From UHGV virus genome UHGV-0101498: DNA of 33,788 bases, one strand, 5' to 3'. The notes under the pieces are model-generated. The model was not told where the DNA came from and ran no database searches. It was given only the letters and a program-made list of their open reading frames with translations. The position numbers and the translations under genes are program-made. Positions 2,139 through 26,497 of the stretch are shown piece after piece. Source of the stretch: a virus. Every line of letters begins with the position of its first letter. The stretch's first letter is position 1.

Positions 2139-2795
2139 CTATTTAACATACTTGACTGTTAAACTTATAATTTTACCAATTATTTCAATGTCTTCTATCT
2201 TGCATTCGAAGGCTCTGTTTCCACCCTCGACGAAGATTCTTCCACCGGGTAAACGAGTAATGTCACGGATCGTTATTTCGCCATCAATACTTATTACCCA
2301 TTTACCATCACGTATATCATCAAATTCTTTATCACAAATAAATTCAGAATTGTTATCTGTGATGACAAAAGGTTTTTTAAACGTAGAGGGTAGAAATCCC
2401 TTATCAAAAATATAAAAACCGTCTTTCTGCAATGCTCCATCAGACAATAAATATTTTTCTACTTCTATAGTATTTGTATTTGCTGATGCTTGCTTTGAAC
2501 CATGCCCTGTTGTTAGCCAATTAAGCGAGGTGCCCGTTTCAAGGGCGCACTGGATTACCCAATCTGCTGGAAAAATATCACGCATATAGCGCGTTGCCAT
2601 GGTGCTCTTAGAAACACCTAAATGATCACATAGAGCCTGACGGGTACCGAACCCATATGCTTCAACTAAACGTTCTATGGCTTTCTTACCGCCGCTATTG
2701 AAATCCACAAGTCCTCCAAAGAAATCCAAAATTCGTTGACAGATTCCAAAAGCGATCTTAAAGTTGAACCAGAAGTGTTCTTTTGGAGCCTTCAC
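2139..2795 (-). CDS. cI: Immunity repressor, phage 186 CI-like (HTH then C-terminal domain)
   Basis: Translation contains ERLVEAYGFGTRQALCDHLGVSKSTMATRYMRD...CALETGTSLNWLTTG, resembling 186 CI as recalled; GTG start at 2795; divergent from apl. Confidence 0.75.
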   Translation of the reverse strand: MKAPKEHFWFNFKIAFGICQRILDFFGGLVDFNSGGKKAIERLVEAYGFGTRQALCDHLGVSKSTMATRYMRDIFPADWVIQCALETGTSLNWLTTGHGSKQASANTNTIEVEKYLLSDGALQKDGFYIFDKGFLPSTFKKPFVITDNNSEFICDKEFDDIRDGKWVISIDGEITIRDITRLPGGRIFVEGGNRAFECKIEDIEIIGKIISLTVKYVK

Positions 2796-2853: not shown

Positions 2854-3057
2854 ATGACACCTAACATTTCAATTACTCTGAATACACCACATGTCACAAT
2901 CGAACGTTATAGCGAACTGACTGGCCTTTCTATTGATACGATTAACGACATGTTGGCTGATGGCCGACTACCTCGTCATCGTCTTCGTAAAGACAAAAAA
3001 CGTGAAAAGGTAATGATTAACCTGGCTGCTCTGACTGTTGATGCTTTGTCTGCTTAA
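2854..3057 (+). CDS. apl: Apl-like excisionase/repressor (Cox functional analogue), 67 aa
   Basis: First gene of the rightward early operon, divergent from cI; small HTH protein; RBS GGAA 9 nt upstream. Confidence 0.65.
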
Positions 3058-3121
3058 TAGACGTCTATTTTCGCAATAAGACGCTGAGTTCGATTTTGCG
3101 ATAAGTTCGGAGTTGAAAACC

Positions 3122-3631
3122 ATGTTTGATTACCAAGTTTCCAAACATCCACATTTTGATGAAGCCTGTCGTGCATTCGCACTGCGCCACAATCTGGTGC
3201 AACTGGCAGAACGTGCGGGCATGAATGTGCAGATTCTGCGGAACAAGCTGAACCCAGCTCAACCTCATTTATTAACCGCACCAGAAATCTGGCTGCTTAC
3301 CGATCTGACTGAAGATTCAACGTTGGTAGATGGTTTTCTGGCACAGATTCATTGTCTGCCATGTGTACCGATTAATGAGGTAGCAAAAGAGAAACTGCCG
3401 CATTACGTCATGAGCGCAACTGCAGAGATCGGGCGTGTTGCAGCAGGTGCGGTATCTGGTGATGTAAAAACTAGTGCCGGTCGTCGTGATGCTATCAGCA
3501 GCATTAACTCTGTAACACGACTGATGGCGCTGGCTGCTGTTTCATTGCAGGCCCGTTTACAGGCTAATCCTGCGATGGCGAGTGCAGTTGATACCGTGAC
3601 TGGCCTCGGTGCTTCATTCGGTTTGCTGTGA
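3122..3631 (+). CDS. cII: CII-like lysogeny-establishment activator (169 aa)
   Basis: [24 protein letters not shown]... with [25 protein letters not shown], strongly resembling 186 CII as recalled; GGAG 9 nt before the ATG at 3122 (ORF track starts at TTG 3113). Confidence 0.8.
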
Positions 3632-4922: not shown

Positions 4923-5776
4923 GCACCATCCTGAAATGGGCGGGAAATAAAACCGCCATTATGTCCGAACTGAAAAAGCATCTTCCTGCTGGCCCGCGAC
5001 TGGTTGAACCTTTCGCGGGTTCCTGTGCAGTGATGATGGAGACGGAGTACCCCAGCTATCTTGTTGCGGATATTAATCCTGATTTAATCAACCTCTATAA
5101 AAAGGTTGCTGCTGATTGTGAATCGTTTATATCTCGCGCCAGAGTTTTATTTGAGATCGCAAACAGGGGGGTGGCTTATTACAACATAAGGCAGGAGTTT
5201 AATTACTCAACTGAAATTACTGATTTCATGAAAGCGGTATATTTCCTGTATCTCAATCGTCACGGTTACCGTGGTTTATGTCGCTATAACAAGAGCGGGC
5301 ATTTCAACATTCCCTACGGTAATTATAAAAATCCGTATTTCCCTGAAAAAGAAATTCGCGCATTTGCAGAAAAAGCCCAGCGAGCAACGTTTATCTGCGC
5401 CAGCTTTGATGAAACGCTGGCGATGTTGAAGGCGGGGGATGTGGTGTATTGCGATCCGCCGTATGACGGTACGTTTTCCGGCTATCACACTGATGGTTTC
5501 ACTGAAGATGACCAGTATCACCTGGCATCCGTTCTTGAACATCGGTCATCAGAAGGACATCCGGTCATTGTTTCTAACAGTGATACATCCCTGATCCGTT
5601 CGCTGTATCGCAATTTTACTCACCACTATATCAAGGTAAAACGCAGCATCGGTGTGGCAGCTGGCGAGGGTAAATCAGCAACAGAAATCATTGCTGTTTC
5701 CGGGCCGCGCTGCTGGGTGGGATTTGATTATTCGCGTGGCGTGGATAGTTCTGCCGTGTACGGAGTACGTGCATGA
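4919..5776 (+). CDS. dam: DNA adenine methyltransferase (Dam-like N6-adenine MTase), 285 aa
   Basis: FAGSCAV SAM-binding motif and DPPY catalytic motif ([10 protein letters not shown]); GGAGGT RBS; stop overlaps the A start (ATGA). Confidence 0.85.
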
Positions 5777-8187
5777 GCCATGCCGATATGAACAACTGCT
5801 GCGGCTTTAACGAGGCTGCCGCAGCGTTCTCATGGAACAGCCCGAAAAAGGCCATTAACCCTTATCTGGACCCGGCGGAAGTTGCGCCGGTTTCTGCGCT
5901 TTCAAACCTGATCGCTCTGTACGCTGCCGATAACGAACAGGAACACCTGCGCCGCGAGGCACTGAGTGATCAGGTCTGGGAGCGTTATTTCTTTAATGAA
6001 TCCCGTGATCCTGTCCAGCGCGAAATGGAGCAGGATAAGCTCATTAGTCGGGCAAAGCTGGCGCATGAGCAGCAGCGTTTTAATCCAGATATGGTCATTC
6101 TGGCGGACGTCAATGCCCAGCCTTCCCATATCAGCAAGCCGCTGATGCAACGTATTGAATACTTCAGCAGCCTGGGCAGGCCAAAGGCTTATTCCCGCTA
6201 TTTGCGTGAGACGATTAAGCCATGTTTGGAGCGACTGGAGCATGTACGCGACAGCCAGCTATCTGCATCTTTTCGTTTTATGGCAAGCCATGTAGGGCTG
6301 GACGGCCTGCTGATTCTGCCTGAAATGAGTCAGGATCAGGTGAAACGCCTGTCTACTCTTGTCGCTGCGCATATGAGCATGTGTCTTGATGCCGCTTGTG
6401 GTGATTTGTACGCCACCGATGATGTTAAGCCAGAAGAAATCCGCAAGACATGGGAAAAGGTGGCAGCAGAAACCCTGCGACTGGATGTTATCCCGCCTGC
6501 GTTTGAGCAACTTCGTCGGAAAAGAAACCGCCGTAAACCCGTGCCCTATGAACTCATTCCGGGTTCGCTGGCGCGTATGTTGTGCGCCGATTGGTGGTAC
6601 CGGAAATTATGGAAGATGCGTTGCGAATGGCGGGAAGAGCAGTTGCGTGCTGTTTGCCTGGTCAGCAAAAAAGCATCTCCCTATGTCAGCTATGAAGCCG
6701 TGATGCATAAACGTGAGCAGCGCCGTAAGTCGCTGGAGTTTTTCCGTTCTCATGAACTGGTGAACGAAGACGGCGACACGCTGGACATGGAGGATGTGGT
6801 AAACGCCAGCAGCAGCAACCCGGCGCATCGCCGCAATGAGATGATGGCCTGTGTTAAAGGTCTGGAGCTTATCGCAGAAATGCGCAGTGACTGTGCCGTT
6901 TTCTACACTATCACCTGTCCGTCGCGTTTCCATTCCACGCTCAATAACGGCAGACCAAACCCGACCTGGACAAACGCGACGGTAAGACAAAGCAGCGATT
7001 ATCTGGTCGGCATGTTTGCTGCATTTCGTAAGGCTATGCACAAAGCCGGGTTGCGCTGGTATGGCGTGCGGGTGGCTGAACCGCATCATGACGGCACAGT
7101 TCACTGGCACCTGTTGTGTTTCATGCGCAAAAAAGACCGCCGCGCCATTACTGCATTGTTGCGTAAGTTTGCCATCCGTGAAGACCGCGAGGAGCTGGGC
7201 AATAACACGGGGCCACGCTTTAAGTCTGAGCTGATAAACCCGCGCAAAGGTACGCCAACAAGCTACATCGCGAAATACATCAGTAAGAACATTGACGGGC
7301 GTGGTCTGGCTGGCGAGATCAGCAAGGAAACGGGTAAATCCCTGCGTGATAACGCTGAATACGTTAATGCCTGGGCGTCTCTGCATCGTGTTCAGCAATT
7401 CCGCTTCTTTGGTATTCCGGGGCGTCAGGCTTACCGTGAACTTCGCTTGCTGGCTGGTCAGGCGGCAAGGCAACAGGGTGACAAAAAAGCAGGTGCGCCG
7501 GTACTGGATAACCCGCGTCTTGATGCCATTCTGGCTGCTGCTGATGCTGGTTGTTTTGCCACCTACATCATGAAGCAGGGCGGCGTACTGGTTCCCCGTA
7601 AATATCACCTCATCAGAACCGCTTATGAAATCAACGAAGAGCCGACCGCCTATGGCGATCACGGCATTCGTATTTATGGCATCTGGTCACCCATTGCAGA
7701 GGGCAAGATCTGCACTCATGCAGTGAAGTGGAAAATGGTTCGTAAAGCCGTTGACGTTCAGGAGGCGGCAGCCGACCAGGGCGCTTGCGCCCCTTGGACT
7801 CGTGGCAATAACTGTCCCCTTGCTGAAAATTTGAACCAACAGGAGAAAGATAAATCAGCTGATGGGGACCCCAGAACGGACATTACCAGCATGGATGACA
7901 AGGAGTTGCACGATTACCTGCACAGTATGAACAAAAAAGAGCGCCGGGAACTGGCTGCAAGGTTACGCCTGGTGAAACCGAAACGGCGTAAAGACTACAA
8001 ACAGCGAATTACAGACCATCAGCGACTGCAGCTCGTGTATGAGCTGAAGTCCAGAGGATTTGATGGCAGCGAGAAAGAGGTCGATTTACTCCTTCGCGGA
8101 GGCAGTATTCCGTCAGGAGCAGGCCTGCGTATCTTCTATCGGAACCAGCGTTTGCAAGAAGATGATCAGTGGCGGAACCTGTATTAA
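5773..8187 (+). CDS. A: Replication initiation protein A (rolling-circle endonuclease, P2 gpA-like), 804 aa
   Basis: Large ORF in the P2 gpA position; motif [16 protein letters not shown] (paired tyrosines) and HWHLLCF (HUH-like). Confidence 0.85.
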
Positions 8188-8279
8188 TTACGCGGGTTAA
8201 CAATTCGTGCTCTTAATAATACCAGGCATATCAGGCTGATGAACGTAAAAAAACGTTTTACATCAGTAAGATTATTATA

Positions 8280-8299
8280 TACTGTAAATATAAACAGTG
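8280..8299. promoter_or_regulatory. LexA (SOS) box tACTGT-N8-ACAGtg upstream of the tum-like operon
   Basis: Seen directly: CTGT(8282-8285)-N8-ACAG(8294-8297), about 42 bp upstream of the ATG at 8341. Confidence 0.7.
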
Positions 8300-8340
8300 G
8301 TTATGCGTACAGTATTGCGTGTGGTGTCATAGGAGGAAAG

Positions 8341-8529
8341 ATGCAGGACTATTTTTTGGAGTCTTTGAAGCTCCAGCGCATTGATTTTTTTCTTAAGCTT
8401 GTAGCGGCTAGCGAGTGTAGTGATGAAGAGAAGGGGCTGGCTCTGCAGTGGGTTTCTGAATTGACTGATGAACTCATGGCAAAAATCAGAACCCACGAAT
8501 ACAACCGCTCAATGGATGTCATCAGCTGA
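8341..8529 (+). CDS. Small protein (62 aa), candidate Tum-like antirepressor N-terminal module
   Basis: AGGAGG RBS; directly downstream of the LexA box and followed by a DinI-like ORF, matching the recalled layout of the 186 tum locus. Confidence 0.45.
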   Translation: MQDYFLESLKLQRIDFFLKLVAASECSDEEKGLALQWVSELTDELMAKIRTHEYNRSMDVIS

Positions 8530-8539
8530 GGTGACTTTT

Positions 8540-8773
8540 ATGCGCATTGAAATAATGATCGATAAAGAGCAGAAGATTAGCCAGTCTACCCTGGACGCCC
8601 TTGAATCCGAGCTTTACCGCAATCTGCGCCCCCTGTATCCCAAAACGGTAATTCGCATTCGCAAAGGTAGCTCTAACGGTGTGGAACTAACCGGACTGCA
8701 ACTGGACGAAGAAAGAAAACAAGTGATGAAAATTATGCAGAAGGTGTGGGAAGACGACAGCTGGCTGCATTAA
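8540..8773 (+). CDS. DinI-family protein (77 aa)
   Basis: MRIEIMIDK...LDALESELYRNL...VWEDDSWLH follows the DinI pattern (MRIE..IAK...DAL..EL...TWESADDWF); GAGGTG RBS. Confidence 0.7.
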   Translation: MRIEIMIDKEQKISQSTLDALESELYRNLRPLYPKTVIRIRKGSSNGVELTGLQLDEERKQVMKIMQKVWEDDSWLH

Positions 8774-8908
8774 GAAACGTTGCTGGCGTCTGAACTTGCT
8801 TCTGGCGTCAGCAAGGTTGAACAACGAGCCCTTGCGAGGCGTTAGCTCTGTAGTGCATGTCTATGCCGCATGAGATCGCATGATCGTTTGAGGATCGTTT
8901 TTGCTAAG

Positions 8909-8996: not shown

Positions 8997-9078
8997 CGCG
9001 CGCTTGCTCTTGAAATGAGAAAGTTAATTGGTTAACTTTTTAAGCAGGGTCAACGCACTGTTGAGCAAAGGAGTGAGT

Positions 9079-9726
9079 ATGATTAGTACAGGACATATTG
9101 TCGCTGTTGGCGCGGTTGATGCAGGCGAAGTAAAATTACTGGGTACCGGTTTTGTCATCTCTAATGACAAGATAATTACATCTCGGCATGTAATTCGTGG
9201 TTTTGCTTTTAATATAATAATTTCTCCTTCGGAGATTAATGATTTTAATCTTTATCAAGATACTACAATCAACAGAATTCAGTATTATTCTGTTGAGGTA
9301 ATTGATGAGGATCCAATCAGAGATCTTTGTGTTTTGAAATTTAAGGCAGGATCGTTTTCTGGGCCCAATATTATCCTCTCAAGCTTAGATAAAATATCTA
9401 TTGGTGAAGAAGTTGGTGTTTTGGGTTACCCTCATTGTAATGAGGGTAGAAAAGTACTTACATTCCAAACAGCAAGAGTCGGTGCTAAGGTTTTACTTTC
9501 GAGTAATAATGTAAAGTCTAAACATGCAGTTATAAATTTGCAATCAAGACCAGGTCAATCAGGTTCAGTTATTTTTAATTTAAAAAATAATGAGGTTGTC
9601 GGGGTGTTAGTTGGTGCTTATACAAATAATGCAGCGGGCTCTGTATTTATTGGAGGAATTAATCCTGCAGCTTTGCATCAAACTACTTATGCGATTTCAG
9701 CTGAATATATTAAGGATATGTTATGA
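9079..9726 (+). CDS. Trypsin-like (S1 family) serine protease, 215 aa, cytoplasmic (no signal peptide apparent)
   Basis: Catalytic triad candidates His37 (TSRHV), Asp82 (RDLCVLKF), Ser161 (GQSGS); AGGAG RBS 5 nt before ATG; AT-rich. The ORF track starts at TTG 9028. Confidence 0.75.
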   Translation: MISTGHIVAVGAVDAGEVKLLGTGFVISNDKIITSRHVIRGFAFNIIISPSEINDFNLYQDTTINRIQYYSVEVIDEDPIRDLCVLKFKAGSFSGPNIILSSLDKISIGEEVGVLGYPHCNEGRKVLTFQTARVGAKVLLSSNNVKSKHAVINLQSRPGQSGSVIFNLKNNEVVGVLVGAYTNNAAGSVFIGGINPAALHQTTYAISAEYIKDML

Positions 9727-10169
9727 TCTCTATACCAAATGAAGATGCTGAAGCTTGGCTATCTACCTTAAAAAAATATCAATCATCAACTATTAAATCC
9801 TTTCTCGAGCAAGGTACGGAAGAGCAAGCTCTTGAATCATGGTTAACAGCTTCAGGCCCAAGTTTAACATCTCCATTTGGAGGGGATGCTTCCAGCATGC
9901 CGGGTAAAAAGGCATTTGTTGATCAGTTTAAGCAAGAGTTTAGAGCTTTTGTTTGTGGAAGCGATAAATATGTCAAAGAGAGGAATGGATTGGGTGAGCT
10001 TGGCGGGGATATTAAAACCTATCTTGTCAGTGTTATTTCAAGTTCAATTGCTACCTCTTTAGGTACTACTACAGTATTTATTGCTCCCGCTGTTGTAATC
10101 ATGCTTATTACGATCTCAAAAATGGGTCTTAATGCGTGGTGTTCATTAGAAACCGTAAAAGACTCTTAA
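9723..10169 (+). CDS. Small protein (148 aa) with a soluble N-terminal region and a C-terminal hydrophobic membrane segment; partner of the protease
   Basis: Start overlaps the protease stop (ATGA); C-terminal stretch YLVSVISSSIATSLGTTTVFIAPAVVIMLITISKMGL is predicted transmembrane. Confidence 0.65.
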   Translation: MISIPNEDAEAWLSTLKKYQSSTIKSFLEQGTEEQALESWLTASGPSLTSPFGGDASSMPGKKAFVDQFKQEFRAFVCGSDKYVKERNGLGELGGDIKTYLVSVISSSIATSLGTTTVFIAPAVVIMLITISKMGLNAWCSLETVKDS

Positions 10170-21436: not shown

Positions 21437-22896
21437 GCACAAAATTTTATACCCTGCTGACGGATATTGGCGCGGCGAAACTTGCCAGCGCCGCCGCGCT
21501 CGGTGTGCCGCTAAAAATTACCCATATGGCGGTGGGCGATGGCGGTGGAGTATTGCCAACGCCGGACGCAAAGCAGACGGCACTGGTAAATGAGAAACGC
21601 CGGGCTGCGCTGAATATGCTTTATATCGACCCGCAGAACAGCAGCCAGATTATTGCCGAACAGGTGATCCCTGAAAACGAGGGCGGTTGGTGGATACGTG
21701 AAGTGGGCTTGTTTGATGAGTCCGGGGCATTGATTGCCGTGGGCAACTGCCCGGAAAGCTATAAGCCGCAACTGGCTGAAGGTAGCGGGCGCACTCAGAC
21801 CGTGCGCATGGTGCTGATTACCAGCAGCACGGACAATATCACCCTGAAAATCGACCCTGCTGTAGTGCTGGCAACCCGCAAGTATGTGGATGACAAGGCA
21901 CTGGAGCTGAAGGTGTACGCGGATGATCAGATGGCAAAACATCTTGCCGCACCGGACCCGCATTCACAGTACGCGCCAAAAGCCAGCCCGACATTTACCG
22001 GAACCCCCAAAGCGCCAACGCCAGCGGCGGGGAATAATACCACGCAGGTTGCGACCACTGCGTTTGTACAGGCGGCACTGACGGCCCTTATTAATGGTGC
22101 GCCAGCCACGCTGGACACGCTGAAAGAAATAGCCGCAGCCATTAACAATGATCCGAATTTCAGTACCACCATTAACAATGCGCTGGCACTAAAAGCACCG
22201 TTGTCGAGTCCGGCACTCACCGGAACGCCAACAGCCCCCACGGCGGCGCAGTCGGTCAACAATACACAGATTGCCACTACGGCTTTTGTGAAATCGGCGA
22301 TTGCAGGAATGGTGGGTTCTGCACCTGCTGCACTGGATACACTGAACGAACTGGCGGCGGCACTGGGGAATGATCCGAACTTTGCCACGACAATGCTTAA
22401 TGCGCTGGCAGGTAAACAACCGCTGGACAATACGCTTACCAATTTGAGTGGAAAGGATGTAGCTGGTCTTCTCACATACCTTGGTTTAGGAGAAGGCTCA
22501 GCATTGCCTGTTGGCGTACCTGTTCCGTGGCCTTCAGTCACACCGCCAACAGGCTGGCTGAAATGCAACGGTGCAGCTTTTTCTGCCGAAGAGTATCCGG
22601 AACTGGCAAAAGTTTATCCGACAAATAAATTGCCAGATTTACGCGGCGAATTCATTCGTGGGTGGGATGATGGAAGAGGAATTGATTCAGGACGGACTCT
22701 CCTGTCTGCTCAGGACGGGAGCATTGAGGCACACGGCCATGATTACAATGGGGCCATCTATACTTCTAGCGGTCCTTCCTGGGCTAATACGACGGATGCG
22801 GGACACCGGGCATATTCGGGATTTACATCATCATATGGCGGGAGCGAAACCCGTCCACGAAATATTGCATTTAACTATATCGTGAGGGCTGCATAA
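21433..22896 (+). CDS. H: Tail fibre protein (P2 gpH-like), C-terminal tail-collar-type receptor-binding domain
   Basis: N-terminus MSTKFYTLLTDIGAAKLA...MAVGDGGG as in P2 H; internal repeats; C-terminal WLKCNGAAFSAEEYPELAKVYP...LPDLRGEFIRGW. Confidence 0.85.
   Translation: MSTKFYTLLTDIGAAKLASAAALGVPLKITHMAVGDGGGVLPTPDAKQTALVNEKRRAALNMLYIDPQNSSQIIAEQVIPENEGGWWIREVGLFDESGALIAVGNCPESYKPQLAEGSGRTQTVRMVLITSSTDNITLKIDPAVVLATRKYVDDKALELKVYADDQMAKHLAAPDPHSQYAPKASPTFTGTPKAPTPAAGNNTTQVATTAFVQAALTALINGAPATLDTLKEIAAAINNDPNFSTTINNALALKAPLSSPALTGTPTAPTAAQSVNNTQIATTAFVKSAIAGMVGSAPAALDTLNELAAALGNDPNFATTMLNALAGKQPLDNTLTNLSGKDVAGLLTYLGLGEGSALPVGVPVPWPSVTPPTGWLKCNGAAFSAEEYPELAKVYPTNKLPDLRGEFIRGWDDGRGIDSGRTLLSAQDGSIEAHGHDYNGAIYTSSGPSWANTTDAGHRAYSGFTSSYGGSETRPRNIAFNYIVRAA
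21982..22422 (+). repeat. Two tandem repeats of about 73 aa inside the tail fibre gene H (phage-fibre repeat)
   Basis: Translation shows ...TGTPKAPTPAAGNNTTQVATTAFV...DTLKEIAAAINNDPNFSTT... repeated as ...TGTPTAPTAAQSVNNTQIATTAFV...DTLNELAAALGNDPNFATT... Confidence 0.7.
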
Positions 22897-23495
22897 TGGA
22901 TAACGCCGTATTAAATAGCGAGCTTATTGCCACGAAGGCGGGGAATATTACTGTTTATAACTATGATGGTGAGACGCGGGAATATATTTCTGCATCAACT
23001 GAATATCTTGCAGTGGGTGTCGGTATTCCAGCATATTCCTGTTTAGACGCTCCTGGTACATCTAAGGCTGGTTATACAATTTGCCGTTCTGTGGATTTAA
23101 AATCATGGGAATATGTGTCAGACCATCGCGGTGAAATCGTCTATAACACCGAAACGGGAGAATCGAAAGAAATCACAGCTCCGGGTGATTATCCTGAAAA
23201 TACAACCACTATCGCCCCGTTAACGCCATACGATAAATGGGATGGTGAAAAATGGGTGACGGATATCAATGCTCAGCACGTAGCGGAAGTGGAAGCGGCA
23301 GAGCAACAGAAATCTGTGCAGCTTCTGTTCGCAAAGGAAAAGATCATTCTTTGGCAGACTGAATTACAGCTGGGAATTATCAGCGACGAAGATAAAGAAA
23401 AACTAATATCTTGGGTGAACTATATCAAAGCTGTTCAGGCAGTAGATACCCAGAAAGCTCACAATATCATCTGGCCTAAAAAACCATTCATATAA
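22896..23495 (+). CDS. G: Tail fibre assembly chaperone (P2 gpG-like)
   Basis: Immediately follows H with an overlapping start/stop; 199 aa. Confidence 0.8.
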   Translation: MDNAVLNSELIATKAGNITVYNYDGETREYISASTEYLAVGVGIPAYSCLDAPGTSKAGYTICRSVDLKSWEYVSDHRGEIVYNTETGESKEITAPGDYPENTTTIAPLTPYDKWDGEKWVTDINAQHVAEVEAAEQQKSVQLLFAKEKIILWQTELQLGIISDEDKEKLISWVNYIKAVQAVDTQKAHNIIWPKKPFI

Positions 23496-23497
23496 AT

Positions 23498-23522
23498 AAA
23501 CGCCCCTTATGGGGCGTATTTT
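23498..23522. terminator. Bidirectional rho-independent terminator between G and the convergent acyltransferase gene
   Basis: AAACGCCCC-ttat-GGGGCGT followed by ATTTTG. Confidence 0.65.
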
Positions 23523-24676
23523 GCTGCTTGCACGTTATTCTTTGGAAGAATTTTATTTGATAAATAATTGGAAAATTTTATCGCGTTATCATCAATTAGC
23601 AATTTAAAAATTAAAGCTGCAAGTATTGAAGATAATAAAGTGATTGGGAAAGTAATAAGTAAAGACTTTCCGTATGAAACTCCTGCATCACCAAGCTTAA
23701 TTACGATCAAAGAAGATATTGAAGCTATTAATGGAAAATGCACCAGATAAAGAGAGTATGATACATCTCCAAGAAATTTACAGGTTTTTGTTTTGAATAA
23801 ATTTGAGATAACTATTGATTTATCAATTGCTATAATAAGAAACATTGAACCAAAGGCTTGAGAAACAATTCTCAAATCAAAGTAAGTTATGTCACTGTTA
23901 TTTATCCAGATACTATGTTCAGTTATAAAATATGGGTATGAACCTAGGTAACATCCTAGTAAAATAAACATAAAGATAATTGTGGTATTAATTTTCTTTA
24001 TATTAACTGAAACATCTGCACAAATCACCCCTAATATAAATCCTAATAGATGACTTGAGCTAAATACCACAATACCCAAAGTATAAAAAGCAAACCTAAT
24101 TCTGGTAGTGCAAACTAGTGGGACCAGAACGAGTACAAGAATTGAGCCAACCAATTCGGTGTGAATGGTCCATAATACTGGGTTTAATGTTTGAACTCCG
24201 TAAAAATATGTACCAATACCCCCTTCCCATACCGCATTCAGTAATGTCATTGTAGTTGGCATCGCTGGGATTACTTGTGATAAAGAGTACACTGCAGTTT
24301 CTGATGAATGAAATCCAATCGTTGTCATCAGAATAAAGGAAAATATAGTAGATGCAATGGTAGGTATTGCAAGACGTGGGTATCTCTTGATAATGGATTT
24401 AGAGTACCATTCTAGCCCCTTCCCTTTGAAAAAGGGAATCGATAGAACCATTCCACTCAAAACGAAGAAAAGCATTACGGCAAAGTGACCATTATATAAT
24501 ATATTAAATGGAGTTTCACTTATGTATTTCTCTCCATAATGATCTATCTGATTTTGAACAAAAACAGATGGTAGAAAGAATTGCATGAAATGGCTTATTA
24601 AAACTATCAAGCAAGCTATACCACGAATACCATCCAGTGCGTGATCTCGGGAAGGCGTCGTTAATTGTTGAACCAT
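23507..24676 (-). CDS. Integral-membrane acyltransferase (acyltransferase-3/OafA-like); candidate O-antigen or surface-polysaccharide acetyltransferase
   Basis: About 390 aa with about 10 predicted transmembrane helices; N-terminal LDGIRGIA...LISHF motif; AT-rich. Alternative start at 24691. Confidence 0.75.
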   Translation of the reverse strand: MVQQLTTPSRDHALDGIRGIACLIVLISHFMQFFLPSVFVQNQIDHYGEKYISETPFNILYNGHFAVMLFFVLSGMVLSIPFFKGKGLEWYSKSIIKRYPRLAIPTIASTIFSFILMTTIGFHSSETAVYSLSQVIPAMPTTMTLLNAVWEGGIGTYFYGVQTLNPVLWTIHTELVGSILVLVLVPLVCTTRIRFAFYTLGIVVFSSSHLLGFILGVICADVSVNIKKINTTIIFMFILLGCYLGSYPYFITEHSIWINNSDITYFDLRIVSQAFGSMFLIIAIDKSIVISNLFKTKTCKFLGDVSYSLYLVHFPLIASISSLIVIKLGDAGVSYGKSLLITFPITLLSSILAALIFKLLIDDNAIKFSNYLSNKILPKNNVQAAKYAP

Positions 24677-24918
24677 CAATTCCTCACACATTGTAATAAA
24701 GTATTAAAATAAAATAGTAAAAGCAGAATATACAAATACGAAAAGCGGAATTATACTTTACAAGAGTGCTTGATGCTATTGTTTTGTCGAGATTTATAAT
24801 CTGATCTTCTGTAGATGTTGTCCTGGCATTGTCCAATCATGATCTATGGGCTGGCTGGCGAACTTTCGATAGTGCGAGTATTGAATGATTTCCAGCCGTT
24901 ACCGATTTTACGTGTTAA

Positions 24919-25167
24919 TTAGTGAACAAACCACTCGTCAGCAGATTCCCAGGTATCTTTCAGAGTCTCCTGAACAAAAGTTTTTGCAGAATCCTTATCT
25001 GCGGTGCGTGTAACAGAAAGGCCATCGTTGCTGGTGGCTTTTACGATCACCTCTACATCGTCATAACGTTTACTGATGCGTCGGGTTAATTCTTCCTTTA
25101 ACGCATCCACAGCACCGGTTGGCATTTTAGTCATTTTTTCTTTGGCTATGCAGATTTCAATACGCAT
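24919..25167 (-). CDS. DinI-family protein (82 aa)
   Basis: [31 protein letters not shown]...[11 protein letters not shown], strongly DinI-like; GAGGGA RBS. Confidence 0.8.
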
Positions 25168-25180
25168 AAAAGTCCCTCTA

Positions 25181-25200
25181 TACTGTGTTTGTATACAGTA
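25181..25200. promoter_or_regulatory. LexA box TACTGTGTTTGTATACAGTA (near-perfect palindrome) upstream of the DinI-like gene
   Basis: CTGT-N8-ACAG seen directly, 14 bp upstream of the start codon. Confidence 0.75.
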
Positions 25201-25208
25201 TTATTTTT

Positions 25209-25228
25209 AACTGTATGGATAAACAGTG
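25209..25228. promoter_or_regulatory. Second LexA box aACTGTatggataaACAGtg
   Basis: CTGT-N8-ACAG, 8 bp from the first box; abuts the stop of the tyrosine recombinase gene. Confidence 0.6.
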
Positions 25229-25855
25229 TCAAGAGGTCTTATTTCTGCTCCTTTGGAGCTCTTCAAAACGATTATGTAAAGATTTCGGATACAGTTCGGT
25301 ATATACCTGCCATAGCACGTTTAATGAACGATGCCCTGTAACCTGGGCGACTTCCTCAATACTAAAACCAGCCTCAAATAAGCGACTTGCCCCTTCTCTA
25401 CGCAAATCATGGTATCGCAGATCTTTAATACCTAATTTGCTTCTTACCCTCTGGAATCCCGCAGTAACAGAAGTGCTGTTATATGGAAAAATGAATTCTG
25501 ATTTTTTGGGTTGTCGTTGGACGATATCCCAGGCTTCCCCAAGCAAGGCTACTTTCATATGGTTGCCTTCCTTTTTACGTGGATCTTTCCTGTCTCTTAC
25601 GAGTATGGATTTTTGTTCCTGATCGAGATCCTCCCATCGTAATCGGCATACTTCACCGATTCGCATACATGACCACACAGAAAATTTGAGGATATCAACG
25701 AACGGAATTTTTGAGCATTTATGTGTAGATCGTTGTTGAAGACCTTCAATGAGCATGTCCAGTTCATCAGATGCCGGTCTACGATTACGACGATTTGATT
25801 TACCAATTAAACCAACGTTTAAGAAAATGCAGAGGTAACAGCTAACTGGCATCAT
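25229..25855 (-). CDS. Short tyrosine recombinase (catalytic domain only, about 208 aa): FimB/FimE-like switch recombinase or 5'-truncated integrase
   Basis: R (RIGEVCRLR), HxxR (YHDLRREG) and H...Y (GHRSLNVLWQVYTELY) motifs present; no N-terminal core-binding domain; no good RBS. Confidence 0.55.
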   Translation of the reverse strand: MMPVSCYLCIFLNVGLIGKSNRRNRRPASDELDMLIEGLQQRSTHKCSKIPFVDILKFSVWSCMRIGEVCRLRWEDLDQEQKSILVRDRKDPRKKEGNHMKVALLGEAWDIVQRQPKKSEFIFPYNSTSVTAGFQRVRSKLGIKDLRYHDLRREGASRLFEAGFSIEEVAQVTGHRSLNVLWQVYTELYPKSLHNRFEELQRSRNKTS

Positions 25856-25882
25856 CTCCGGTTTTTATTCAGGGGGATGATC

Positions 25883-26449
25883 ATGCTTATTGGCTATGTA
25901 CGCGTGTCAACAAATGACCAGAACACCGATTTGCAACGTAATGCACTGAACTGCGCGGGATGTGAGCGGATTTTTGAGGACAAAATCAGTGGCACTAAGT
26001 CCGACAGACCGGGGCTGAAAAAACTACTCAGGACACTATCGGCAGGAGACACGCTGGTTGTCTGGAAGCTGGACATGTTGGGGCGCAGTATGCGGCATCT
26101 TGTTACGCTGATAGAAGAGTTGCGCCAGCGTGGTGTGAATTTCAGAAGCCTGACTGACAGTATTGATACCAGTACCCCAATGGGCCGTTTCTTTTTTCAT
26201 GTCATGGGTGCCCTGGCTGAAATGGAACGCGAACTGATAGTTGAACGTACCAGGGCAGGGCTGGCTGCAGCTCGTGCCAAAGGCAGAGTAGGTGGACGCC
26301 GTCCTAAGTTGACCACCGAACAGTGGGCACAGATTGGGCGTTTACTCGAGGCCGGAGAATCAATACAGCGTATTGCACTGATTTTTGATGTAGGCGTTTC
26401 TACCATTTATAGAAAATTTCCGGCAAATAAGATCAATGAATCCCCCTGA
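25883..26449 (+). CDS. Serine recombinase, DNA invertase of the Hin/Gin/Pin family (188 aa)
   Basis: MLIGYVRVSTNDQNTDLQRNAL...SLTDSIDTSTPMGRFFFHVMGALAEMERELIVERT with a C-terminal HTH, nearly co-linear with Hin/Gin as recalled; GGGGG RBS 6 nt before the ATG. Confidence 0.85.
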   Translation: MLIGYVRVSTNDQNTDLQRNALNCAGCERIFEDKISGTKSDRPGLKKLLRTLSAGDTLVVWKLDMLGRSMRHLVTLIEELRQRGVNFRSLTDSIDTSTPMGRFFFHVMGALAEMERELIVERTRAGLAAARAKGRVGGRRPKLTTEQWAQIGRLLEAGESIQRIALIFDVGVSTIYRKFPANKINESP

Positions 26450-26497
26450 ATCAGCATTATGTTGATTATCCCTGCAAGCAGACAAATACCGTTATTT

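Follow-up and report, generated by a model that had tools for sequence, protein, structure and literature searches.

A probable SOS-induction operon of the split Tum type in a 186-like, P2-family prophage of Escherichia coli

The two-gene module described here is very probably the SOS-induction operon of a 186-like, P2-family prophage of the Fels-2/DuoHS type, in which a small TumA-type antirepressor would act on the immunity repressor CI and a DinI-like protein would be an accessory; we put the probability of this reading at about 0.9. The window, by which we mean the whole 33,788-nt stretch of DNA that was analyzed (UHGV-0101498), is a P2-family prophage of E. coli that carries an integrase and a 186-type switch (CI, Apl-like and CII) and lies beside rcdA. 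In the mechanism that we propose, a promoter resembling p95 of phage 186 would be shut off in the undamaged cell by LexA, bound to two boxes that overlap each other and span its -10 and start region. Upon DNA damage LexA would be cleaved and the operon transcribed, yielding two proteins. The first, a 62-aa TumA-type protein predicted to fold as two helices, would bind CI and keep it off its operators, opening the way to lytic development; the second, a 77-aa TumB-type DinI-like protein, probably modulates RecA and the SOS signal and would not be required, since its gene is missing from about half of the related loci. The system as such is already known: a split tum is on record for Fels-2 and PSP3, and deletion of a gene that differs from the present one by a single residue cost the prophage of E. 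coli HS its inducibility, as predicted. The value as a discovery is thus small, and the practical use lies in the annotation of the 62-aa antirepressor, for which neither Pfam nor NCBIfam has a model.

An earlier, sequence-only reading of this DNA had described a LexA box followed by a 62-aa ORF (ORF1) and a 77-aa DinI-like ORF (ORF2) in another frame 10 nt further on, with a ribosome-binding site of its own for the second ORF. All of these elements are present (Table 1). Read from the sequence, ORF2 is in the +1 frame with respect to ORF1, and 41 nt separate the end of LexA box 1 from the ATG of ORF1. A longer version of ORF1, with 96 aa and an ATG at 8239, was also considered. This start lies upstream of the promoter and the box, and the extension is not conserved (the open frame upstream of ORF1 varies from 2 to 99 codons among related loci), so that the longer version was dropped.

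Table 1. Features of the two-gene module, its control region and the surrounding prophage genes (positions in the window)
Feature	Position	Strand	Remarks
Immunity repressor, 186 CI family	2139..2795	-	33% identical to 186 CI; presumed target of the antirepressor
Apl-like ORF	2854-3057		adjoins the CI gene
CII homolog	3113-3631		69% identical to 186 CII; adjoins the CI region
Replication gene A homolog	5773-8187		directly upstream of the module
A-tract, then -35 hexamer TTTACA (8257-8262) of the putative SOS promoter	8250..8262	+	conserved; counterpart of 186 p95
LexA box 1, TACTGTAAATATAAACAGTG	8280..8299	+	core CTGT-N8-ACAG at 8282-8297; first hexamer TACTGT (8280-8285) at the -10 position
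LexA box 2, weaker, overlapping box 1, CAGTGGTTATGCGTACAGTA	8295..8314	+	core GTG-N10-CAG at 8297-8312
ORF1, tumA-type gene, 62 aa	8341..8529	+	ATG at 8341, stop TGA at 8527-8529; SD AGGAGG at 8331-8336
ORF2, tumB-type gene, 77-aa DinI-family protein	8540..8773	+	ATG at 8540, stop at 8771-8773; SD GAGG at 8528-8531
Stem-loop past the operon, without U-tract	8776..8818	+	possible terminator or stabiliser

The protein encoded by ORF1 is identical at 61 of 62 residues to STM2728 of Fels-2, and equally to the tum product of DuoHS (ECHS_RS04495). Pairwise BLASTP of ORF1 against 186 Tum and against PSP3 TumA gave no alignment, and identity to the matching stretch of 186 Tum is only about 20%. At the profile level, alignment of the ORF1 relatives with the family of 186-type Tum N-terminal halves (hhalign) gave a probability of 96.7% and an E-value of 3.6e-10, with columns 4-44 falling on columns 4-44. 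A Smith-Waterman comparison of ORF1 and Tum was likewise collinear (residues 6-41 on 6-41), with a score of 57 against 21 +/- 4 for shuffled sequences, a single one of 5000 shuffles scoring as high. The PHROGs families tell the same: ORF1 matches phrog_698 (E-value 3.6e-38), this family is also matched by the N-terminal 70 residues of 186 Tum (5.9e-6), and both ORF1 and the N-terminal part of Tum match phrog_8554 and phrog_1993. Together, these three kinds of match point to a distant homology between ORF1 and the N-terminal, antirepressor part of Tum, a homology that is supported and that rests on profiles.

To collect relatives of ORF1, 1.84 billion cluster representatives were searched in full with HMMER. 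They form 87 clusters at 50% identity and are nearly all short proteins. Codon comparison gave a dN/dS of 0.06 for codons 1-50 and of 0.23 for the tail of ORF1; by this measure the core is under strong purifying selection, and the tail is under purifying selection as well. Residues E7, R13, I14, W37, E40, L41 and L45 of TumA are invariant. AlphaFold2 modelled ORF1 as a two-helix hairpin (helices 2-23 and 28-61) with a pLDDT of 89. A search of the ORF1 profile against the chain sequences of the PDB returned zero matches, and a Foldseek search of the PDB with the predicted hairpin returned generic hairpins of no significance (best E-value 0.9). Scans of ORF1 with Pfam, NCBIfam and PADLOC found nothing, and PHROGs labels its family "unknown function". 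In the RefSeq and phage records examined the protein is mostly annotated as "hypothetical protein", and in some phage records as a "levan regulatory" protein.

The second ORF is recognized readily. ORF2 matches the Pfam DinI family (PF06183) over profile positions 1-63 of 63, with an E-value of 6.6e-23 and 81.3 bits (cut-off 24.2), and it matches the solved structure of E. coli DinI (1GHH) with an E-value of 2.7e-6. Its score against the NCBIfam equivalog model of the host DinI (NF007893) is 42.7 bits, below the cut-off of 111. On these profile scores ORF2 is a DinI-like protein, and one distinct from the chromosomal DinI. It is identical at 77 of 77 residues to the DinI-like protein of DuoHS, and 41% identical to residues 71-145 of 186 Tum, its first residue aligning with the internal GTG start of the product known in 186 as "truncated Tum". 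Correspondingly, it spans positions 71-148 of the 151-position profile of phrog_189. Alignment to 186 Tum thus places ORF2 directly on the C-terminal half, and ORF1 on the N-terminal half at the profile level only. The same prophage carries a second DinI gene with a LexA box elsewhere.

The sequence-only reading had offered two explanations for the separate ORFs, namely a natural split-gene variant and a frameshift. Among species-level loci from Enterobacterales, the ORF1 homolog is a stand-alone ORF in 40 of 40, mostly with 62 aa. Where a DinI ORF follows, the spacer measures 8-13 nt and the second ORF is found in relative frames 0, +1 and +2; spacers that use all three frames would be impossible within a single gene. 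No DinI ORF lies directly downstream in 19 of the 40 loci. The module is also common: of 5426 complete E. coli genomes, 1125 (roughly one in five) carry it, some in up to three copies, and it is annotated as two genes in the 15 best-matching E. coli records. The first explanation is borne out by the separate ORF in the 40 loci, by the variable frame and by the dN/dS of 0.06, and the second is contradicted by the conservation of separate ORFs across loci. As read from these loci, the two-gene form is natural and widespread, and was never one gene in this lineage.

It could still be argued that in the window itself a recent frameshift, or a sequencing indel near 8525-8545, has split a tum gene of the 186 kind into ORF1 and ORF2. 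ORF2 can indeed be read in frame upstream as far as 8468, so that a single indel could join the two frames, and among the close relatives of 186 Tum, 78 of 80 loci encode the fused 146-aa form (a count taken from IMG/VR loci; another hit list under-represents Tum proteins of this full length). However, ORFs of the identical length of 62 aa, ending at their own stop, are found in Fels-2 and DuoHS, and zero fusions to DinI occur among the 87 representatives of the ORF1 family. ORF2 has its own SD and ATG, and the tail of ORF1 is constrained (dN/dS 0.23, against 0.06 in the core). Added to the separate ORFs in 40 loci, the short spacers in all three relative frames, the 19 loci with no adjoining DinI ORF, and the recurrence of the module in 1125 complete E. 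coli genomes, with two annotated genes in the best-matching records, this leaves the broken gene with practically no credibility. The constant split in the lineage of ORF1 and the fusion in the relatives of 186 argue instead for two stable lineages of one two-module design. We accordingly name the natural split as the preferred reading, and would class the module as a split Tum type that stands outside the fused, single-polypeptide form of 186, with a Tum-like action predicted by analogy.

The control region points to regulation by LexA. Three copies of the motif CTGT-N8-ACAG are found in the window where 0.52 would be expected, and by this count LexA box 1 exceeds chance expectation. A box at the matching position was found in 42 of 43 related loci, in its strict form in 32 and with one core mismatch in 10 more. 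The hexamers TTTACA and TACTGT are 17 bp apart, and in an alignment of 44 related promoters the A-tract and both hexamers are kept, with a variable spacer. The SOS promoter was missed by a generic sigma-70 scan because its -10 hexamer, TACTGT, is weak; we assigned it from the annotated layout of 186 p95 and from conservation.

A second LexA-like box (core 8297-8312) overlaps the first, which makes the operator double. Box 2 is present in 23 of 42 loci, which make up an Enterobacteriaceae group including Fels-2 and DuoHS, and it is absent from 186 and PSP3. The 43-nt operator with its paired boxes is 86-88% identical to the operators found just ahead of the colicin N (cna) and cloacin genes of Col plasmids. 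The geometry of the box overlap is alike, and the gene start lies at a comparable distance, whereas the -35 region and the controlled genes are unrelated to those of the prophage module. In colicin genes, two overlapping SOS boxes prevent the untimely expression of a function that is lethal to the producer (PMC2994835), and control of a cell-lethal function is something the prophage operator would share with them. By sequence, the operator is of the colicin type, with two LexA boxes that overlap, and LexA would be expected to occupy both. The resemblance to the colicin operators, together with the lethal output, suggests that the double operator may impose tight repression and a high SOS threshold. 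The colicin-type double operator of the split-tum module is a newly described detail.

The closest characterized relative of the window is DuoHS of E. coli HS. The two share the rcdA-side site and are collinear; 27.4 of the 33.8 kb, or 81% of the window, align at 94-98% identity. TumA is identical at 61 of 62 positions, the DinI-like protein (ECHS_RS04500) at 77 of 77, box 1 and the 10-nt spacer are identical, and CI is 87% identical. The differences within the module amount to one residue of TumA (T51S) and a few bases in box 2. Elsewhere, the cargo after the operon differs, the window carrying a PDC-M35 candidate defence pair, and so do the tail-fibre/cargo region and the N-terminal/operator side of cI. 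In DuoHS, markerless deletion of ECHS_RS04495 alone, or a lexA(Ind-) background, abolishes both lysis by mitomycin C and virion foci (PMC12055606). The gene is necessary for induction according to these data, which leave its mode of action to homology. SOS induction through an antirepressor, as had been predicted for the window from its sequence, is in this way established by experiment for DuoHS (PMC12055606); given that the deleted gene is 61/62 identical, the prediction was already verified for an essentially identical module.

The same experiment bears on whether the module might be a "moron" under SOS control, of use to the host because its DinI-like protein would control RecA, with the small ORF playing no role in induction. 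DinI is the sole domain of the module recognized by curated libraries, RefSeq names ORF1 a hypothetical protein, and the second LexA-boxed DinI gene of the prophage could be seen in the same light. In DuoHS, however, deletion of the 62-aa gene alone blocks induction with the DinI gene intact. In about half of the related loci tumA stands with no DinI gene, and ORF1 is under strong purifying selection, both of which speak against a module built around DinI. We consider a purely host-serving function very improbable, and retain the induction operon as the reading of the locus.

A split tum has been described for Fels-2 and PSP3, the upstream gene of PSP3 carrying the antirepressor activity, according to Lemire et al. 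2011 (PMC3121763), who cite Bunny et al. 2002. Fels-2 of Salmonella Typhimurium LT2 (STM2728/STM2726.1) has the same arrangement as the window: an A gene, a LexA-boxed promoter, a 62-aa ORF, a 10-nt spacer and a 77-aa DinI ORF. It also has the double box, and its DinI gene is annotated as similar to PSP3 TumB. The gene of Fels-2 is worded as "split by a stop codon" (Bunny, Liu and Roth 2002, as relayed in PMC3121763), whereas in this lineage the two parts lie in different frames. PSP3 resembles the window in having two annotated genes, tumA for a 60-aa protein ("similar to 5' end 186 tum; UV induction of prophage") and tumB for a 77-aa DinI homolog. In contrast to the window, the two ORFs of PSP3 are in the same frame, 3 nt apart, with a single LexA box upstream; its TumA belongs to another subfamily, phrog_1993, which is nearer to 186, and its CI has a duplicated HTH domain.

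In phage 186 itself, tum follows gene A as the module does in the window, and the -10 hexamer of p95, TACTGT, lies inside the LexA site. The record of 186 has entries for p95, for the LexA site and for a Tum of 146 aa that "inhibits CI DNA binding", which agrees with the sequence-only reading, where Tum is given as a protein of about 146 aa with a DinI-like C-terminal half. The record also lists three shorter in-frame products, the shortest of which has an internal GTG start and is annotated "truncated Tum - modulates SOS induction"; this separately translated DinI-like product of 186 starts where ORF2 starts. Unlike the window, 186 has one polypeptide with a linker of approximately 25 residues, a single LexA box, and orf97 after tum in the operon. 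The 186 Tum is reported to bind CI reversibly and to block operator binding, on biochemical evidence (Shearwin et al. 1998, as cited in PMC3121763 and PMC7708051).

The presumed target of TumA in the window is a CI that is only distantly matched in Fels-2. Overall, the window CI is 38% identical to that of Fels-2 and 87% to that of DuoHS; for Fels-2, identity is about 70% between the N-terminal domains and about 26% between the C-terminal ones. Across 35 loci, the core of TumA is 68-100% identical to that of the window; in the same loci, identity to the window CI is 61-83% for the N-terminal domain, apart from one locus at 36%, and 24-41% for the C-terminal domain. On these identities, TumA appears to be kept constant while the linked CI diverges strongly, which is also newly described here. 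We found no co-variation of TumA and CI in pairwise identities, with Spearman coefficients of 0.03 and -0.16 when TumA is compared with the N- and the C-terminal domain of CI, respectively. Such a lack of co-variation is unexpected for a specific one-to-one antirepressor. One Pantoea locus (L029) has an ORF1-type TumA beside a CI of the 186 class. The N-terminal HTH domain of CI, at about residues 30-100, has a framework that is conserved across loci and could be the common target of TumA.

These results leave some room for ORF1 being needed for induction while not binding CI directly and stoichiometrically, with proteolysis of CI, Apl/CII or a host factor as the route instead. The DuoHS evidence is purely genetic, conservation is far higher in TumA than in CI, with no co-variation between the two, the Fels-2 TumA is 61/62 identical beside a CI of 38% identity, and an ORF1-type TumA accompanies a 186-class CI in L029. 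Nevertheless, ORF1 is homologous to that part of 186 Tum for which CI binding is described biochemically (the work of Shearwin et al. 1998 mentioned above), and the conserved HTH framework would offer a potential common target. We hold an indirect route to be unlikely, and infer by analogy with 186 that TumA binds CI directly.

The constancy of TumA beside a divergent CI, the lack of co-variation, the pairing in L029, the occurrence of up to three copies of the module per genome and the 19 of 40 loci with no adjoining DinI gene led us to keep a broader proposal in play, which we offer tentatively and regard as doubtful on balance. TumA might be a generalist that recognizes a conserved surface of the N-terminal HTH domain, common to many heteroimmune CI repressors of the 186/Fels-2 type, and induces co-resident P2-family prophages in trans, the double operator would then set a high, all-or-none threshold, and the DinI-like gene would be a cassette that is gained and lost. 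Putative cross-induction by TumA would resemble the Gifsy antirepressors, which act in trans (PMC3121763). If the proposal were true, a single TumA could induce several different co-resident P2-family prophages. The double operator, and an antirepressor that is constant while the repressor diverges, are of interest for induction thresholds and for cross-talk among prophages that share a host. Naming the 62-aa antirepressor would furthermore allow SOS-inducible P2-family prophages to be distinguished from non-inducible ones of the P2 type by sequence alone.

Finally, we looked at RNA elements in and around the operon. An Rfam scan of the entire window reported zero RNA families. A hairpin spanning the stop of ORF1 and the SD of ORF2 (8518-8535) might have coupled the translation of the two genes or served as an attenuator; this idea was rejected because its folding energy hardly stands out from that of shuffled sequences (z -1.0) and the sequence of the junction is not conserved among loci. 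Past the operon, the 85-nt stretch 8766-8850, which contains the stem-loop listed in Table 1 and a second small hairpin, folds at -30 kcal/mol, with a z of only -1.6 against shuffles, which is not significant; the stem-loop may be a terminator or a stabiliser. Its sequence is also found straight after the tumA stop in loci that have no DinI gene.

Directly 3' of the stop codon of tumA, the gene of the 62-aa antirepressor TumA (ORF1), three related loci without a DinI gene (L017, L027 and L047; about 9186-9210) have the sequence GGAACGTTGCTGGCG. The same sequence is found in the window (8776-8790) after the DinI ORF; the DinI gene of the tum operon thus behaves as a presence/absence cassette with sharp edges.

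Besides this 77-aa DinI-like ORF (ORF2), the window contains a second DinI-family gene, whose predicted product shares 31% identity with ORF2. Since it also lies behind LexA boxes, this is a prophage with two DinI paralogs, both LexA-boxed. The second gene belongs to a cargo island that is absent from DuoHS, the near-identical prophage of E. coli HS, and that also carries a membrane acyltransferase, an integrase-family ORF and a serine invertase/resolvase. Another cargo, of two genes, directly follows the tum operon; in PADLOC, its products, a trypsin-like protease and a 148-aa protein, hit the candidate defence system PDC-M35A/B (E 1.5e-91 and 6.3e-57, respectively). DuoHS and the Salmonella prophage Fels-2 have other genes at this site.

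Features of the window and of phage PSP3 (locus L006) discussed in the text
Feature	Position	Strand	Details
Two-gene cargo	9028-10169		between tum operon and portal gene
Trypsin-like protease	9028-9726		first cargo gene
148-aa protein	9723-10169		second cargo gene
Cargo island	21897-26465		between tail-fibre genes and tail sheath
Membrane acyltransferase	23507-24691	-	PF01757
Second DinI-family gene	24919-25167	-	82 aa; PF06183, E 1.1e-19
Two LexA boxes	25183-25198 and 25211-25226		CTGT-N8-ACAG; 28 bp apart; ahead of second DinI gene
Integrase-family ORF	25229-25855	-	208 aa
Serine invertase/resolvase	25877-26449		in cargo island
PSP3 cI	L006 2719-3579		286 aa

Comparing the window (CI at 2139-2795, minus strand) with the related loci L004/L007 and L008-L047, we observed that TumA is much better conserved than the linked repressor CI, and that co-variation between the two is absent. 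Between Fels-2 and the window, 61 of the 62 TumA residues are identical, whereas the CI proteins are 38% identical. A Pantoea stewartii locus (L029) combines a 186-class CI with an ORF1-type TumA. In the CI of PSP3, the N-terminal HTH domain apparently occurs twice in tandem, a duplication not seen in the CI proteins of 186, Fels-2 or the window.

One subgroup of the antirepressor family, made up of distant ORF1-family proteins (P0266, P0277, P0278, P0296, P0297, P0303, P0306 and P0307), has in common a C-terminal tail, K-N/S-P-Q-x-G-G ... G-x-x-Q, which the ORF1 protein of the window lacks. Public annotation of ORF1 (8341-8529) and its database homologs is inconsistent: RefSeq/PGAP labels them “hypothetical protein”, the label in UniRef and in some records of Klebsiella phages is “levan regulatory (domain) protein”, and elsewhere they are left unlabelled. 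Many of the homologous gene calls are over-long (84-109 aa), with a start codon 5' of the promoter.
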